Below are positions 42,001-48,000 of a stretch of DNA of 64,000 nt, in pieces. The DNA is taken from positions 960,001 to 1,024,000 of the forward strand of contig CAVYGN010000002.1 of NCBI GenBank assembly GCA_963768055.1, read 5' to 3'. Within the stretch, counting starts at the first letter, position 1, and each line of letters opens with the position of its first letter. Source of the DNA: an uncultured Spirochaetota bacterium (GTDB lineage: Bacteria > Spirochaetota > Brevinematia > Brevinematales > JAOACQ01). The position numbers are program-made.

Positions 42001-45000
42001 GATTTTCTGATGTACTACACATGTAGTATATAAATATACTACAACTGTAGTAATAAGTCAAGGGTTTTTGAAAAAATATTTTTATTGGGTTTTTTCGGCT
42101 GAACTATGAACCGGCCGGCCATGCTTTGACAAACTTTTGTCTGGCCGATTCCCCCGGCGATATATGGATTTCAAATGTTCAGGTAAAAGAGGTTATGGAT
42201 TAAATCTTATGCGTCCTTTCAAATCGACGATATGAATTTGCTCTCCAGCATAACAAGCATCCGCCGTTCCTTTTGAAGCGAATTCCTCATGTCGAATAAA
42301 AGTTTCCTTGTCTGCGCCGGGTTTTTTATATCGGCCCCGCCGCTTTTCGCCTGAGAAAGATAATCGGGGAACCTCCCTGCTATATAACTTGAAACGGAGT
42401 CTTCGGATTTGAAAACATCGCTGATTTTCTTGAGATACGGCATCCATTTTTGCGAATCCTGAGCCTGTATTTTTAACATCTCATCAAGGTGGGATTTGAT
42501 CGTGCTTATCGTCGAGCAAAAACGGAAGTTTTTTTCCGCAAGCGCCCATTCTTCCTGTTTTTGAAAGTTTGCAAGTTCTTTAGCGAGCTGGCCGTCCTCT
42601 GCCGATTTCAAAATGTCCTTCAGCCTGACAATGATCATATTGATCGTCGTGCTCATAAGGCAATAAATTTCCTCGAGAGCTTCGAATACGGTTTCCCTTT
42701 TTTCCCTTAAATTTGCTTTGTCGGACCTTAAGCCTTCCTGCGCCCTGCCGAGGTCGTCTATCATTTCCTTAAAAAAACCGGTCGCCATTTTCGTCCCCTA
42801 TTGATTATAATAATCCCTCTTGATTTTTTCAAATTCGTCTTTTCCGCATGCAAGGGCCGCGGCAGCGGGAGCGGTTTTTTTTACGGTTTCAACCATTTCG
42901 GATGCTATTTTCCGTATATCCCACTGCGCGTAAGCGTCCATGCGCAACCTCGCGATATGATAGATTTCCCGTAAATTGACATTTACAAGTATCCTTCGCC
43001 TGTGGGCGTTAGTAAGGATGTAGTCCGAGGCCATGCCGTTTTCAGTCTTTAATTTTTCATAAGTATTTTCCGTTTCTGCAATGATATTATTAAATAAGCC
43101 GGCCATTCCGATCTCTTCGATCGATGGGGGTAATGTGACACCGAGCGAAGTCTCATAGGGCTGCTTGAGTATAGTCATCATCCGGTGCCTTTTCATCTGT
43201 GCAAAGGCGCTTGAACTAAGGATAATTTCAAACAGGAAATTCACATTTTCGAATTCCCTGTAAAGAGCGTCGTGCTCGCCCAGGTCTTTAAATATCTCTT
43301 TAAAAAAAAGAGTCCGCCCGTTTTCATTCATATTTTCCGCGGCCGACAGGCATTCCATGAAAGATCTCGCCGATGACGAATGAAGAAGGCTTGCTATGAT
43401 TTTTATGTCGGGTTCGGGCGTTTGTTCAAGAAGGGTCACGTTCCTGCCTGTTTTCGACTCTTTTCCGTTAAGATATTTTTTTGCCAGTAATTTAAGGTTT
43501 TCCCTGCCCTGTTTCAATATGCCGTCGGAAACGTCTCTGCCCGTTTGTTTTTTAAAACTTTCCCGGTCGGTCAATATAATAAGGGAGGGCACTACGGTCT
43601 TAGCCTTTTCGTAAAGTTTTAACGACAGGTCCCGGACTTCACTGAGAGGGTGGTATTTAAGTTTCCTGATAATATTTTCTAGGTTCCTGGCGTTAACGGA
43701 AAATCCGAGCTGGCATTCGGTGGCAAGAGACATGACATAACGGGCGTCTTCCTTGGCCCGCCCCTCTATTATGTTCGCTCCGGATTTCGTGGCTGTCATT
43801 TCAGGATGGGCGGCTTTCTGCGCTTCATGGAGAGCAGGGAAGAGTTTCATGTAAGCATCTATCTGTTTACAATAAGCGGAAGAGAAGAGCTCTTTATCTT
43901 CATCATTAAACTCTGCGGGTATTACCGTATCTCCCTCAAGGGTTATATATCGCTGTGATTTTTCCGTATACGAACTCAAACGTGATTCTTCAAGGGCTTC
44001 GACAGCGAGCCTCGATAAGCCGGTAATATCGAAATTCAGGCAGGCATGTTCGGCAACAGAGTGGTGCCCCATTTTAAATATAATGTTTTCGTTAGATTTC
44101 CTCGCTTTATCAAGAGCGTCCCTAGCCGCCGCGCGCAGTTCGCCGACAGGGCGTTCGTCCCTGCTGATTCTCGCATAGGCTGCGGAAAGCGTCTCCGGAG
44201 TAATGTTGTCCCTGCCGTCCCAACCTCTTTCTTTGAGGGATTCCAGGACTACTGCATCTACGTTAAATCCGGCAAGTTCGATTTTAAGCATAAATTCCTC
44301 AATGAACCGTACGCTAGTCTAACACTCCGATTTCCAGGGGAGGCCTTTCTATCAGTTCGTACTTCACCCCGGCTTCCTTGAAAAGCTCTTCGAAAGTTTT
44401 ATCGGGATAATAAGAACAGGCAATGAATTTCCTGATCTTTGAATTCACGATCATTTTAGCACAGATTATGCAGGGGGAGTGAGTGCAGTAAATAGTTGCG
44501 CCTTCAGTGGTTATTCCATTTAAGGCGGCATGTATAATGGCGTTCTGCTCGGCATGGACTGCGCGGCAGATCTCGTGCTGCATGCCCGATTTGATTCCAA
44601 GCTGGTCCCTGAGACAGCCGAGTTCAATGCAGTCTTTAATTCCGGAAGGGGCCCCGTTATAACCGGAACTGACTATATGATTATTATTTACTATGACAGC
44701 GCCTACATGGTGCCTGATGCAGGTGGAGCGTTCCGCTATGAGGTAGGCCATCTTTATAAAATATTCGTCCCAGGACGGCCTGATGTAAGGTTTGTAATTA
44801 AGTTCGGCAAGGATTGCGTCCAGTTTTTTATACATGGACCTCAAGCTTCCGGAATTATCGATTTTATAATCGGCAAGCTCCAGACAGCGGTTAAGCTGCT
44901 GGGCCTTATCATCCGAGGAGTTTTCTCTTTCCTCTTTACGGATAAATTCCTCAAGGGTCTCCCCGTCACCGACCCTTCCCCTCTTAATAGACCTTTCGAA

Positions 45001-48000
45001 CCTGTTATGTATGTCGGCCGTTATACCGATGAGTTTGAAAGATTTAAGATTGCTTCTTAAAACTTCGATTTCATATGGGTTTCTTATACTGTCGACAATC
45101 GCCTGCGGGAGGTTTTTAATCTTTGTTATGACCCTTTTAGCCAGGGTCGCCGGGCCTTCGCTTTCCCTCAAGTCATTGCCTATATCGATAAGACTGTCGC
45201 GGTTTGATTCCAGACCCTGCCTTACAGCTTCTTCCCTGATAATGTCGGAAAGAGAAAAAGCGATGAATTTTTTCTTTTCCACGAGGTATTTTATAGCTTC
45301 GCCCTTTCCGGCGGCGTTCGTCCCTGTAAAACCTAGAAACATGCCACCCTCCCGAAAAATTATTGCCCCCGCGACAATTATTTTATAAAGTCATTGAGAA
45401 AATCACAAAATATCGGCGATTGAAATAATCAGCTGCTGAAATTAATGACAATTTAACCGTATTAAATTAGAGCGCTTCTAATAACCTTCGGATAGGAAGC
45501 GCCCATAGGGCATGCAATTAAAGTTAAATAGCAAGTCTCAAGCGCAAGGAGCGATATTCTTGAGTTATTAGAACTGCCCTTTATAATATTGGGGTTTTAT
45601 CAAGAACGAGGCGCTATGCCCAAAAGGACTGACATACATAAAATTCTTATAATCGGTGCAGGTCCGATCGTAATCGGCCAGGCTTGCGAATTCGATTATT
45701 CAGGTACCCAGGCCTGCAAAGCTCTTTGTGAAGAAGGTTTTGAGGTTGTTCTCATCAATTCAAATCCCGCGACAATAATGACAGACCCTGAAATGGCCGA
45801 CAGGACTTATATTGAACCGATAACCATCGAATATCTTGAAAAAATTATCGAGCATGAACGCCCTGACGCCTTATTGCCCACTCTGGGCGGTCAGACTGCC
45901 CTCAACGCTGCTGTAAAGTTGTATGAAGCCGGGATCCTTGAAAAATACAAGGTTGAAATGATAGGAGCAAATTACGAGGCTATAAAAAAGGGAGAGGATA
46001 GGGAAGAATTCAACAAAGCTATGAAACGGATCGGTTTAAAGCTGCCGGAAAGCTGCGTGATACATACCATGGAGGAAGCCATCGCTTCGATAGACAGGAT
46101 CGGGTTTCCGAATGTTATCCGCCCGTCTTACACGCTTGGGGGGACAGGGGGCGGTATAGCTTACAACATAGACGAGTTTAAAGAGGTCGTGAAAAGAGGT
46201 CTTGACGCCAGCATTAAAAGCGAGGTGCAGATAGATAAATCCCTTCTGGGCTGGAAGGAATTCGAACTTGAGGTAATGAGGGACAAAAAAGACAATGTGG
46301 TTATTGTCTGCTCCATTGAAAACTTCGATCCCATGGGAGTTCATACGGGGGATTCAATTACCGTTGCTCCAGCTCAAACATTGACTGACAAAGAATATCA
46401 GAAACTGAGGGATTATTCCATAGCAATAATAAGGGAGATCGGCGTAGATACCGGGGGATCCAATATACAATTCGCAGTTAATCCGATGGACGGCGAGGTG
46501 ATAGTTATAGAAATGAATCCAAGGGTTTCCAGGAGTTCCGCTCTTGCTTCGAAAGCGACGGGTTTTCCTATTGCTAAATTTGCGGCAAAACTTTCAATCG
46601 GATATACGCTGGACGAGATACCCAACGATATAACCAAAGAAACCCCGGCTTCGTTCGAGCCGACGCTTGATTATGTAGTAGTTAAAATCCCCAGGTTTAA
46701 TTTTGAAAAATTCAAGGAAACGAAACCTTATCTTGGAACACAGATGAAATCTGTCGGAGAAGTAATGTCGATCGGCAGGACGTTTAAGGAAGCGCTCCAG
46801 AAGGGCCTTCGTTCGCTGGAAAACAAATATACCGGTTTAAACGATTTCATGTTCGGCAAAGAGGGATTTACACCCGCCGAATTCAGGAAGATGCTTATCG
46901 AAAAACTGAGGATTCCTAATCCTGAAAGGATCCTTATTATCAAAGATGCATTGAAAACAGGGTTTTCCATCGATGAAATCCATGAAATCTCTAAGATAGA
47001 CCGCTGGTTTTTACATAATATCAGTGAGATCATTGAAAAGGAGAAAGAGATCGCCGGCAGGGAACTTGCAAGTTTAGATAGGGATGAAATGAAGGAGATA
47101 AAACAATTCGGCTTTTCCGATATGCAGCTCTCAATGATTTTGAATCATAATCCTCTAGAAAAAGATGTCAGGGCATTTAGAAAATCCGTCGGTGTAGAGC
47201 CGACATACAAACTCGTGGATACATGCGCAGCGGAATTTCAGGCAAAAACGCCTTATTTTTATTCGACATATGAAGACGAAGACGAAGCGGATCCCGATAG
47301 CAGTAAAAAGGTCATGATCCTTGGCAGCGGGCCTAACAGGATAGGGCAGGGCATCGAGTTTGATTACGCTTGTGTTCATTGTTCAATGGCTTTGAGGAAA
47401 GAAGGTTATGAAACTATTATGGTCAATTCGAACCCTGAAACGGTATCGACCGATTACGATATATCGGATAAACTCTATTTTGAGCCTTTGACATTTGAAG
47501 ATGTCATGAACATTTATGAAAAGGAAAAGCCTATAGGAGTTGTGCTTCAGTTCGGAGGCCAGACCCCGCTAAAATTGGCAATTCCACTTACAGAAGCGGG
47601 TGTTCCCATCCTGGGAACATCGTCTGAATCGATAGACATCGCAGAAGACCGGGACCGTTTTCATGACCTTATAGAAGATCTCGGATTCAAGCAGCCCCCC
47701 TCTTCGACGGCTGAAAATATCAAAGAGGCCCTTGTAATAGCCGACAGAGTCGGTTATCCTATTCTTGCCAGGCCCTCCTATGTTCTGGGCGGCAGGGCCA
47801 TGCTCATAGTTTACTCCAGGGAAGATCTTGAAAAGTACATGAAAGAAGAAGCCGAATCGCTGAAGGATGGTCCTGTTCTTATAGATAAATTTCTTGAAAA
47901 TGCCCAGGAAATCGACGTAGACGCGATAGGGGACGGCGAAAATGTCATAGTTGCAGGAATAATGCAGCATATCGAGGAAGCCGGCATACATTCGGGGGAT

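Follow-up and report, generated by a model that had tools for sequence, protein, structure and literature searches.

Fusions of a P-loop kinase-like domain with a dCMP deaminase are already known from DcdV/AvcD, the anti-phage dCTP deaminases (NF041025; PADLOC dCTPase), with which the protein described here, g02635, is homologous and collinear. DcdV/AvcD proteins exceed g02635 in length, with profiles of 437-630 positions and 532 aa for DcdV itself, and are described as regulated by a cis-encoded RNA and found in mobile islands (10.1101/2021.03.31.437871), whereas g02635 is a conserved core gene beside thyX and belongs, by its kinase domain, to a family with stand-alone members too. What is new is not the architecture but its link to cytidylate kinase (Cmk).

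Both halves of the protein also have described relatives of their own. The ComEB/DCTD/T4 Cd dCMP deaminases (2hvw, 2w4l, 1vq2) have no kinase domain, but the C-terminal domain of g02635 is 37% identical to the Streptococcus mutans enzyme over 155 columns and keeps the HAE, PCxxC and GYNG motifs of these enzymes (the last at residues 227-230, invariant). The closest relative of the N-terminal domain, in both sequence and structure, is SSO1041/UPF0200, an 'adenylate kinase-related protein' of Sulfolobus solfataricus (3lw7, 3h0k; NCBIfam PRK08356), which is similar in size (about 180 aa) and shares the P-loop and arginine pattern of the N-domain, but is a stand-alone archaeal protein of about 21-23% identity; a literature search on its function found no paper. 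Of the structural neighbours, eukaryotic-type UMP/CMP and adenylate kinases (1ukz, 1uke, 7e9v, AK1) are some of the best characterised (Foldseek 5.4e-09 for 1uke), and their P-loop, NMP-site and DGF-type motifs align with those of the N-domain, although identity is 14-18%. Cmk itself (PF02224; 3r20, 2h92, 2cmk) shares the fold class of P-loop NMP kinases (Z 12.3-13.7), carries the activity that we propose for the N-domain and has a bacterial distribution that mirrors that of the kinase; it differs in its length of about 220 aa and its inserted NMP-binding subdomain. Lastly, Schizosaccharomyces pombe Tad2 (7eey) resembles g02635 in having a kinase-fold domain at the N-terminus of a CDA-superfamily deaminase, but it is a tRNA adenosine deaminase and a much weaker structural match (Z 11.9), and its N-domain is a caution that kinase-fold domains fused to deaminases need not be catalytic.

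The g02635 locus

Coordinates count along the window, the 64,000-nt stretch of the source genome (G000) that was analysed. All features lie on the minus strand.

44314..45342 (stop codon included), minus: g02635, kinase-like/dCMP deaminase fusion, 342 aa (ORF list, Pfam, AlphaFold2)
44788..45342, minus: P-loop NMP-kinase fold, SSO1041/UPF0200-like, residues 1-185 (Pfam, phmmer, structure)
45301..45324, minus: Walker A/P-loop GTNAAGKG, residues 7-14 (conservation, hhalign to Adk)
44317..44787, minus: ComEB/DCTD-type dCMP deaminase, residues 186-342 (Pfam, phmmer, Foldseek)
44461..44556, minus: zinc and catalytic motifs H263-A-E265 and P290-C291-x-x-C294 (conservation, alignment)
42798..44291, minus: tandem (double-length) ThyX, 497 aa (Pfam, TIGRFAM)
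42219..42788, minus: 189-aa ORF of no known family, beginning 9 nt past thyX (ORF list)
45380..45408, minus: promoter-like site 5' of g02635 (consensus scan only, 9/12 consensus matches)
41929..41965, minus: terminator-like hairpin with a 15-pair stem, 3' of the 189-aa ORF (consensus scan only)

The two-domain fusion reported in the genome-wide survey's note was recovered as an ATG-initiated reading frame, in which Pfam places AAA_17 on residues 6-126 (8e-09; 36.3 bits, cut-off 27) and dCMP_cyt_deam_1 (PF00383) on residues 190-308 (9e-26; 90.2 bits, cut-off 25). Mean pLDDT was 91.6 for the AlphaFold2 model of the whole protein and 94.8 for the N-domain modelled alone. After a gap of 22 nt, thyX follows downstream in the same orientation, its product matching PF02511 (Thy1) in two stretches at 5.5e-59 and TIGR02170 (thyX) at 122.9 bits against a cut-off of 87.9. 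The 189-aa ORF, for which no Pfam family was found at E <= 0.01, is probably the third gene of an operon after g02635 and thyX.

The relation of the N-terminal residues to SSO1041, also proposed in that note, held up. Residues 1-185 retrieved SSO1041 (3h0k/3lw7) from the PDB by phmmer at 1.2e-07, and 3lw7, which according to its title is AMP-bound and which has AMP as its sole ligand, is the closest solved structure (VIA-align Z 22.8, rmsd 1.7 A, 167 residues), followed by human phosphomevalonate kinase 3ch4 (Z 16.4), yeast UMP kinase 1ukz (14.9), Adk (14.8) and Cmk 3r20 (13.7). Scores to named families were low, with 43-46 bits for PRK08356 against a cut-off of 189 and 17 bits for TIGR01359 against 207.6. 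The P-loop residues G7, G12 and K13 are invariant in an alignment of 40 fused homologues, as are S30-L31-S32-D33, R48, R59, D84, I86-R87-N88, E91, R114 and R121; G12 and K13 are also invariant across 34 N-domains that include fused, adjacent and diverged forms. The NMP-kinase-type arginines R36, R87, R114, R117, R121 and R123 are invariant or nearly so, and hhalign matched the P-loop, SLSDxxR and DSI of the N-domain to the P-loop, STGDxFR and DGF of the Adk of G000 (probability 52.8%). Since PF02224, the Cmk family, has no match on g02635, the N-domain would be an analogue of Cmk and not its orthologue.

The C-domain is close to known deaminases, matching S. mutans dCMP deaminase by phmmer (2hvv, 1.7e-25) and by Foldseek (2hvw, 4.1e-16, target-normalised TM-score 0.92). 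H263, E265, P290, C291 and C294 do not vary among 40 homologues and fall on the HAE and PCxxC motifs when aligned with 2hvv, 1vq2 and 4p9c; the ComEB equivalog scores 115 on g02635 against a cut-off of 219.

Distribution of the kinase family and of Cmk

As the note had stated, G000 lacks Cmk: PF02224 gave no hit over its cut-off with 43/43 candidates scored and 14/14 controls detected, the best score being 16 bits on the Adk gene, and PF13189 (Cytidylate_kin2) gave none with 7/7 candidates scored. Adk (the only ADK-family gene), Gmk, Tmk and PyrH are present, again in agreement with the note, together with CoaE and Dut; searches for the dCTP deaminase Dcd and for ThyA found neither, and Udk/PRK is absent. 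Because the other small P-loop kinases (CoaE, AroK, CobU, CysC, Gmk, Tmk) are all assigned, PyrH is present and Udk/PRK is absent, no rival candidate for a CMP kinase is left in G000. Likewise, with Dut present and both Dcd and ThyA absent, the fusion deaminase is the only route found in this genome from a cytosine nucleotide to dUMP, a route that requires a supply of dCMP.

In the order of G000, the either/or relation of fusion and Cmk that the note described was reproduced. Cmk is present in 25/35 genomes and absent from G000, the 4 other members of its genus and 5 further genomes of its family, while residues 1-185 of g02635 match 8/35 genomes, all among the Cmk-less 10, so that 8 genomes have the kinase only, 25 Cmk only, 2 neither and 0 both; the query here, as in the G029 class below, was a single sequence, which misses the diverged subfamily A. 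The two genomes with neither are 57% and 86% complete. The fusion is kept, at 66-86% identity in open frames of 346-369 aa, in 7/7 relatives from four genera that lack Cmk. One correction is needed: Dcd occurs in 0/8 fusion genomes vs 13/27 others, so the fusion also replaces Dcd and the local pattern is confounded, since it coincides with Dcd loss as well.

Across the phylum, Cmk was found in 370/401 genomes (318/336 of the high-quality ones). Among the 10 Cmk-less genomes listed outside the family of G000, 9 were tested, and 7 of them, from six families, carry a full-length kinase (G120, G085, G090, G101, G115, G127, G139); the Cmk-bearing controls G146 and G096 gave partial stretches of only 22.7 and 27.6 bits. 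Two well-assembled Cmk-less genomes of the phylum, G094 (99% complete) and G109 (93%), gave only weak partial matches of about 29 bits, and thus Cmk can be absent without the kinase.

The pattern recurs in two further phyla. Of 81 genomes from the Acidobacteriota class to which the Bryobacterales MAG G029 belongs, 10 have the kinase only, 68 Cmk only, 3 neither and 0 both; for 81 genomes from the Myxococcota class of the Anaeromyxobacteraceae MAG G025, the corresponding numbers are 61, 16, 4 and 0. The missing Cmk of the latter does not reflect general incompleteness, because Gmk is present in 57/61 kinase-bearing genomes. Absence of subfamily A from Cmk-bearing genomes was profile-tested only in the G025 class, a second set of 41 genomes, G146 and G096. 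The objection that the pattern reflects one or a few events, raised in the note itself, is answered by this recurrence in two further phyla and six further families, and comparative support for replacement of Cmk is now much stronger.

The note's proposal that the fusion replaces Cmk is supported, with a further correction: what alternates with Cmk is the kinase family, whether fused, adjacent or stand-alone, and not the fusion as such. Among 39 loci from many phyla, the kinase is fused to a dCMP deaminase in 28 and adjacent to one in 11. The fused protein is conserved at about 340 aa in many phyla; many Myxococcota kinases are stand-alone proteins of about 190-220 aa, and in 0/10 fetched loci of this kind was a deaminase found within 4 kb. 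Several bacterial phyla thus contain genomes with the kinase family or Cmk, almost never both. Of the 39 genomes in which kinase and deaminase are fused or adjacent, 6 also match Cmk above the cut-off: the bacterial MAGs G009 (258 bits) and G020 (221 bits), where Cmk is full-length, the bacterium G018, whose 79-bit match lies within a 5753-aa frame, and 3 Woesearchaeota. In the 41-genome set, both occur together in 1 bacterium (G041, where an atypical match of 70 bits lies within a frame of 2366 aa) and in 19 archaea, with Methanosarcinales, Methanoperedens, Methanocellaceae, Methanocrinis and Woesearchaeota among the archaea with both. As many archaea carry both, the family is not a Cmk substitute everywhere.

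Function and origin of the kinase-like domain

On balance, we favour the prediction that the N-domain works as an active (d)CMP kinase, has displaced Cmk and interconverts dCDP and dCMP, and that it is fused to a deaminase making dUMP for ThyX. g02635 would then be a housekeeping bifunctional enzyme, in which an NMP kinase of the uncharacterised SSO1041/UPF0200-like family would catalyse (d)CMP + ATP <-> (d)CDP + ADP in both directions and take over the job of the missing Cmk, namely CMP recycling and the dCMP/dCDP link, while an ordinary zinc-dependent dCMP deaminase would convert dCMP to dUMP, on which the product of the neighbouring thyX acts. The frequent fusion or adjacency of the kinase to a deaminase, and the ThyX, ThyA or Tmk genes that lie beside it in some loci, speak for this reading. 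The note had offered Cmk replacement and dUMP supply as two readings; they are compatible, because a single (d)CMP kinase working reversibly would account for both. We infer the kinase activity and a flux from dCDP via dCMP to dUMP, with (d)CMP suggested as substrate by phyletic patterns only. Given the either/or pattern across several phyla, g02635 probably stands in, as a substitute not described before, for a housekeeping enzyme that is almost universal.

The loss of Cmk may not call for a substitute at all, however, since cmk is non-essential in Escherichia coli, being represented in the Keio collection (PMC8565310), as the note had stated. It is possible, though less likely, that Cmk loss is tolerated or otherwise covered and that the N-domain binds nucleotides without being the cell's CMP kinase, holding or sensing the phosphate tail of a substrate or effector as in DcdV/AvcD; g02635 would then be a dC-nucleotide deaminase (dCTP and/or dCMP) of the CDA fold that replaced Dcd, with Dut finishing the step from dUTP to dUMP. 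That the domain could bind substrate in place of transferring phosphate is suggested by DcdV/AvcD, which deaminate dCTP/dCMP with the same two domains, both of which DcdV is reported to need (10.1101/2021.03.31.437871). The PADLOC dCTPase model is collinear over both domains of g02635 (206 bits, residues 2-328 on positions 156-504 of 630), NF041025 also aligns (152 bits), the Dcd pattern in the order and the retained Dut fit, and the non-kinase N-domain of Tad2 is a precedent. Left unexplained are the stand-alone copies, which are equally strict towards Cmk (0/61 with Cmk) and have no deaminase nearby, and the Cmk-less lineages of the phylum with such copies; the conserved full set of NMP-kinase-type arginines also argues against mere binding. 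A role of g02635 in anti-phage defence, as a DcdV/AvcD-type enzyme depleting dC nucleotides upon infection, is very improbable: the architecture is shared and the matches to defence models are significant, but the NF041025 score lies far below its cut-off of 400, 342 aa fall short of both profiles (437 and 630) and of DcdV, and the gene is conserved in Cmk-less relatives, keeps its length in many phyla, has an operon-like arrangement with thyX and sits in a genome that lacks another cytosine-nucleotide route to dUMP.

An active kinase on another substrate (dUMP, dTMP, dNMPs broadly or AMP), only indirectly anticorrelated with Cmk, seems unlikely to us. The AMP in the SSO1041 crystal, a weak Pfam match of one stand-alone member to DNMK (T4-type dNMP kinase), the DNMK family on 19% of one Atlas cluster and the archaeal Cmk kept beside the kinase in many archaea would fit such a kinase, as would some gene neighbours: the kinase adjoins ThyX in G000 and L012 and ThyA in L125, and Tmk lies near it in L011, L033 and L042. 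Yet Cmk is the sole NMP kinase missing from G000, and the either/or relation is specific to Cmk, Gmk being retained in nearly all kinase-bearing genomes of the G025 class.

As for the origin of the proposed (d)CMP kinase, the N-domain of G000 groups in the tree with that of L008 (support 100/99), apart from the stand-alone kinases found elsewhere in the phylum, which implies at least two separate acquisitions of the kinase in this phylum, each found without Cmk. In the lineage of G000, we infer that the fused gene probably came from outside the phylum and that Cmk and Dcd were lost afterwards.

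The fusion gene and its two domains

The genome that carries g02635 (G000; 2 contigs, 3.69 Mb, 94.75% complete) has no cytidylate kinase (Cmk) detectable with PF02224 or PF13189, and its five weak PF02224 matches all lie outside g02635. The genome-wide survey's note, which had described a kinase-like/dCMP deaminase fusion in a genome devoid of Cmk, is thus borne out, with AAA_17 and PF00383 both matched on the gene. Any Cmk role of g02635 would be one of analogy rather than of family membership. The gene and its surroundings are as follows.

44314-45342, minus strand: g02635, kinase-like/dCMP deaminase fusion, 342-aa open reading frame with ATG start
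Residues 6-126 of g02635: AAA_17 (Pfam)
Residues 190-308 of g02635: dCMP_cyt_deam_1 (Pfam, PF00383)
42798-44291, minus strand: tandem ThyX, 497 aa, two Thy1 stretches, start 22 nt downstream of g02635
42219-42788, minus strand: 189-aa open reading frame without a Pfam family, start 9 nt after thyX
Upstream of g02635, the first gene: promoter-like site (consensus match only)
After the 189-aa frame, the third gene: terminator-like hairpin with a 15-pair stem (consensus match only)

Upstream of g02635 lies carB, divergently oriented. The 189-aa frame looks like the third gene of an operon, and tblastn found no relatives of it in 80 related loci. The ThyX of the window is of double length, with two Thy1 repeats, and a tandem ThyX that is 45% identical to it stands beside a fused kinase-deaminase in a Woesearchaeota MAG (L012:95-1636). 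Adjacency to ThyX was rejected as a general rule, as, of the 39 loci where kinase and deaminase are fused or adjacent, L012 alone has ThyX beside them. In a Methanosarcinales MAG (L125), a stand-alone kinase (3989-4534, minus strand) has thyA as its divergent neighbour (4699-5562, plus strand; PF00303, 303 bits), which is another tie of the kinase family to thymidylate synthesis.

The C-terminal domain is an ordinary dCMP deaminase. PF00383 scores 90.2 bits, its cut-off being 25, and the zinc and catalytic motifs H-A-E and P-C-x-x-C (H263, E265, P290, C291, C294) are invariant across 40 homologues and align with those of 2hvv, 1vq2 and 4p9c. Foldseek places 2hvw first (4.1e-16; TM-score 0.92, normalised to the target), followed by T4 Cd, S-TIM5, human DCTD and PBCV-1 bi-DCD, and phmmer finds 2hvv at 1.7e-25. 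The ComEB equivalog TIGR02571 gave 115.2 bits, below its cut-off of 219.45.

The N-terminal domain is, as modelled, a P-loop NMP kinase fold of the Adk, UMP-CMP kinase and CoaE class. The AlphaFold2 model of the whole protein, built with 40 homologues as input, has a mean pLDDT of 91.6, and the N-domain modelled alone reaches 94.8. Structurally it lies closest to SSO1041 (3lw7; Z 22.8, 167 residues at an rmsd of 1.7 A), well ahead of human phosphomevalonate kinase (Z 16.4), yeast UMP kinase 1ukz (14.9), Adk 1aky (14.8), CoaE 2grj (14.2) and Cmk (13.7). The Walker A motif GxxxxGK stands at the N-terminus as GTNAAGKG (residues 7-14), and in this motif G12 and K13 do not vary across 34 diverse N-domains. 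Among the 40 fused homologues, G7, G12, K13, S30-L31-S32-D33, R48, R59, D84, I86-R87-N88, E91, R114 and R121 are invariant and conservation reaches at least 90% at R117, R123 and R36, the last of which is invariant in 18 homologues. With a modest probability of 52.8%, hhalign aligns residues 3-86 to the Adk of G000 and pairs the P-loop, SLSDxxR and DSI with the P-loop, STGDxFR and DGF of Adk. Judged by the motifs of NMP kinases, some of these arginines may be equivalent to the NMP-site and LID arginines, and the conserved residues would be those expected in a working NMP kinase. The family UPF0200/PRK08356 (NF006226) is related but a different equivalog, with scores of 43.4-46.5 bits where 189 would be needed.

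G000 encodes one Adk, CoaE, AroK, CobU, CysC, Gmk, Tmk and PyrH, and Udk/PRK was not found; this inventory therefore leaves the N-domain of the fusion as the sole orphan NMP-kinase-like domain. A CoaE identity for it was rejected because the genome holds its own CoaE (102.8 bits). A hidden CMP kinase in the form of a second Adk or a UMP-CMP kinase paralogue was discarded, there being a single ADK-family gene, as was an archaeal-type Cmk (PF13189), which gave no match. Given that one Dut is present and that true Dcd and ThyA were not found, no way to make dUMP from cytosine nucleotides was found apart from the C-domain.

Distribution of the kinase family and of Cmk

Of 2377 candidates, 875 proteins are homologues of the fused form, of about 340 aa, at E <= 1e-5, while a search with the N-domain alone gives 1788 cluster representatives at E <= 1e-10, mostly stand-alone proteins of about 185 aa that bear only generic names ("AAA family ATPase", once "dephospho-CoA kinase"); the clusters retrieved from the Atlas were all AAA_17/AAA_18 and carried automatic names. 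Three proteins, P0122 (395 aa), P0176 (379 aa) and P0257 (387 aa), have two matched stretches, that is, two tandem kinase domains. A scan of species genomes gave 80 loci, in 39 of which kinase and deaminase occur together (28 fused, 11 as adjacent separate genes); these include Acidobacteriota, Myxococcota, Micrarchaeota, Woesearchaeota, Pacearchaeota, Omnitrophota, Elusimicrobiota, Dehalococcoidia, Gemmatimonadales, Glassbacteria and others. In the tree, the N-domain of G000 groups with that of locus L008 (support 100/99). Starred branches stand between it and the stand-alone kinases of the same phylum, which fall in a second subfamily together with Dehalococcoidia and Methanosarcina proteins. 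In Myxococcota, fused and stand-alone forms cluster as a single clade (98/98), and at least three changes are needed to account for the fused state. In-situ displacement at the classical cmk-rpsA position was not seen among eight stand-alone kinases, whose neighbours vary.

The survey's note had claimed that genomes of the order hold either Cmk or the fusion and never both, and this is what was found there and, for the kinase whether fused or not, in two classes of other phyla, in counts that include kin and are not independent, so that the number of separate lineages is what matters.

Genomes by presence of the kinase family (fused, adjacent to a deaminase or stand-alone) and of Cmk
Order of G000, 35 genomes: kinase without Cmk, 8; both, 0; Cmk without kinase, 25; neither, 2 (57% and 86% complete)
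Class of G029 (Bryobacterales MAG), 81 genomes: kinase without Cmk, 10; both, 0; Cmk without kinase, 68 (one of them, G555, flagged unpublished); neither, 3
Class of G025 (Anaeromyxobacteraceae MAG), 81 genomes, profile A3: kinase without Cmk, 61; both, 0; Cmk without kinase, 16; neither, 4

In the class of G025 the kinase occurs both fused (frames of 335-390 aa) and stand-alone (about 190-220 aa), and no deaminase lies within 4 kb of any of the 10 Myxococcota stand-alone kinase genes fetched. The either/or pattern goes with the kinase and not with the deaminase. Gmk, taken as a control, is present in 57 of the 61 kinase-bearing genomes of this class, whereas 10 of the 16 with Cmk (G578, G590, G595, G600, G605, G610, G614, G618, G622 and G630) have no Gmk match (PF00625, E <= 1e-10); Gmk could be divergent or displaced in that Myxococcota sub-lineage.

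In the sample of the phylum of G000, Cmk is present in 370 of 401 genomes and in 318 of the 336 of high quality. Among the 20 listed of the 31 genomes that lack it, 10 belong to the family of G000, and the test covered 9 of the other 10 (G105 and 11 unlisted Cmk-less genomes were left out). A full-length kinase was found in 7 of these 9: in G085, G090 and G101 (123-140 bits), in G115, G127 and G139 (108-140 bits) and in G120, where a dCMP deaminase gene follows directly downstream. The remaining two, G094 and G109, gave kinase matches of only about 29 bits, and the Cmk-bearing controls G146 and G096 matched over partial stretches only, at 22.7 and 27.6 bits. Many Cmk matches in this phylum lie within frames of about 773-878 aa (e.g. 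G349, G334, G314, G182 and G121), which suggests a Cmk fused to a larger protein, possibly ribosomal protein S1.

Cmk exceeds the cut-off in 6 of the 39 genomes with a kinase-deaminase pair: G009 and G020 (full-length), three Woesearchaeota and G018, an Omnitrophota MAG whose match is partial (C5:8789-9325; 79 bits, profile positions 1-177, in a 5753-aa frame). The other 41 scanned genomes include 15 bacteria, of which 7 have the kinase without Cmk, 5 Cmk without the kinase, 2 neither (very small assemblies) and 1 both, namely the Elusimicrobia MAG G041, with a partial, atypical Cmk-like match (C20:52815-53363; 70 bits, profile positions 1-154, in a 2366-aa frame). Both enzymes occur in 19 archaea of this set, one of which (G051) is flagged unpublished. 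At least three phyla, and seven families within the phylum of G000, keep to the either/or rule, and the proposal of the survey's note that the fusion stands in for Cmk is, at the level of gene content, supported and extended beyond the order.

Proposed replacement of Cmk or of Dcd

Of the explanations for this pattern, we lean towards an active (d)CMP kinase that displaced Cmk. The main rival, which we consider rather improbable, holds that the N-domain binds nucleotides without Cmk activity, as part of a deoxycytidine-nucleotide deaminase that replaced Dcd. In its favour, true Dcd (117-141 bits) occurs in 13 of the 35 genomes of the order and in none of the 8 with the fusion. No dCMP deaminase match was found in the Cmk-bearing relatives G146, G226 and G096 or in the Cmk-less G311 (86% complete); the swap in the family of G000 is therefore one of Cmk plus Dcd against the kinase-deaminase fusion, which fits a module supplying both functions. 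The order of G000 alone cannot separate the two replacements, but the Myxococcota and the stand-alone kinases can, and they argue for the replacement of Cmk. A (d)CMP kinase function of g02635 is a strong prediction of comparative genomics. The sole dCMP-deaminase-like match in a Cmk-bearing relative of the order (L126, G175:C11:513465-516896; 37% identity) lies in a 482-aa frame and is so fused to something else.

While the presence and conservation of the two domains are observed, we infer every later step of the mechanism. The kinase domain would equilibrate (d)CMP and ATP with (d)CDP and ADP, and might thereby both recycle CMP and take dCMP from dCDP, the product of ribonucleotide reductase; the fused deaminase would convert dCMP to dUMP, which ThyX would then methylate. 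PMC8565310 places cmk among the non-essential Keio deletions and gives a 40-fold rise in CMP:CTP without it, and a substitute is therefore advantageous rather than logically required. The limited literature searched yielded nothing on the function of UPF0200/SSO1041, on Cmk-lacking organisms with a substitute or on a kinase domain in S. pombe Dcd1.

Cmk counts as a housekeeping gene of nearly all bacteria, and where a genome lacks it, the metabolic reconstruction shows a hole. Taking the evidence together, we tentatively propose, at a little under an even chance, that repeated non-orthologous displacement of Cmk has left entire bacterial lineages with a kinase of the SSO1041/UPF0200-like type as their (d)CMP kinase; that the recurrent fusion or adjacency of such kinases to dCMP deaminases forms a dCDP-dCMP-dUMP module also able to replace the Dcd route; and that the defence enzymes DcdV/AvcD are a derived, weaponised offshoot of this housekeeping module. 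Among the lineages concerned would be most of the Myxococcota sampled from one class, Acidobacteriota of the Bryobacterales type, Dehalococcoidia, Elusimicrobiota/Endomicrobia and, in the phylum of G000, seven families. If so, the 1788 cluster representatives would gain a function, the structural-genomics orphan SSO1041 a testable role and the kinase domain of DcdV/AvcD an origin, and the pyrimidine pathway maps of Myxococcota, Acidobacteriota, Dehalococcoidia and many candidate phyla would need correction.

Likeness to the defence enzymes DcdV/AvcD

The preprint 10.1101/2021.03.31.437871 describes a PLK-DCD architecture for DcdV/AvcD, and the same architecture underlies NF041025 and the PADLOC dCTPase model. 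In g02635, as in these enzymes, a dCMP-deaminase domain follows a P-loop kinase-like domain, and the gene is homologous to both models (152.3 and 206 bits, respectively). However, it falls below the curated NF041025 cut-off of 400, and only positions 156-504 of the 630 of the PADLOC model are covered, the flanking parts being absent from g02635. Whereas the defence genes are accessory, patchy and island-borne, protect against phage and have an inhibitory RNA encoded in cis, g02635 lies beside thyX and is kept in all 8 kinase-bearing, Cmk-less genomes, from four genera. On these grounds, namely the score, the missing flanks and its standing as a conserved core gene, an AvcD-like defence role was rejected. 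The PADLOC dCTPase model nevertheless matches this core gene at 2.7e-61, so automated defence-system censuses may count housekeeping genes like g02635.
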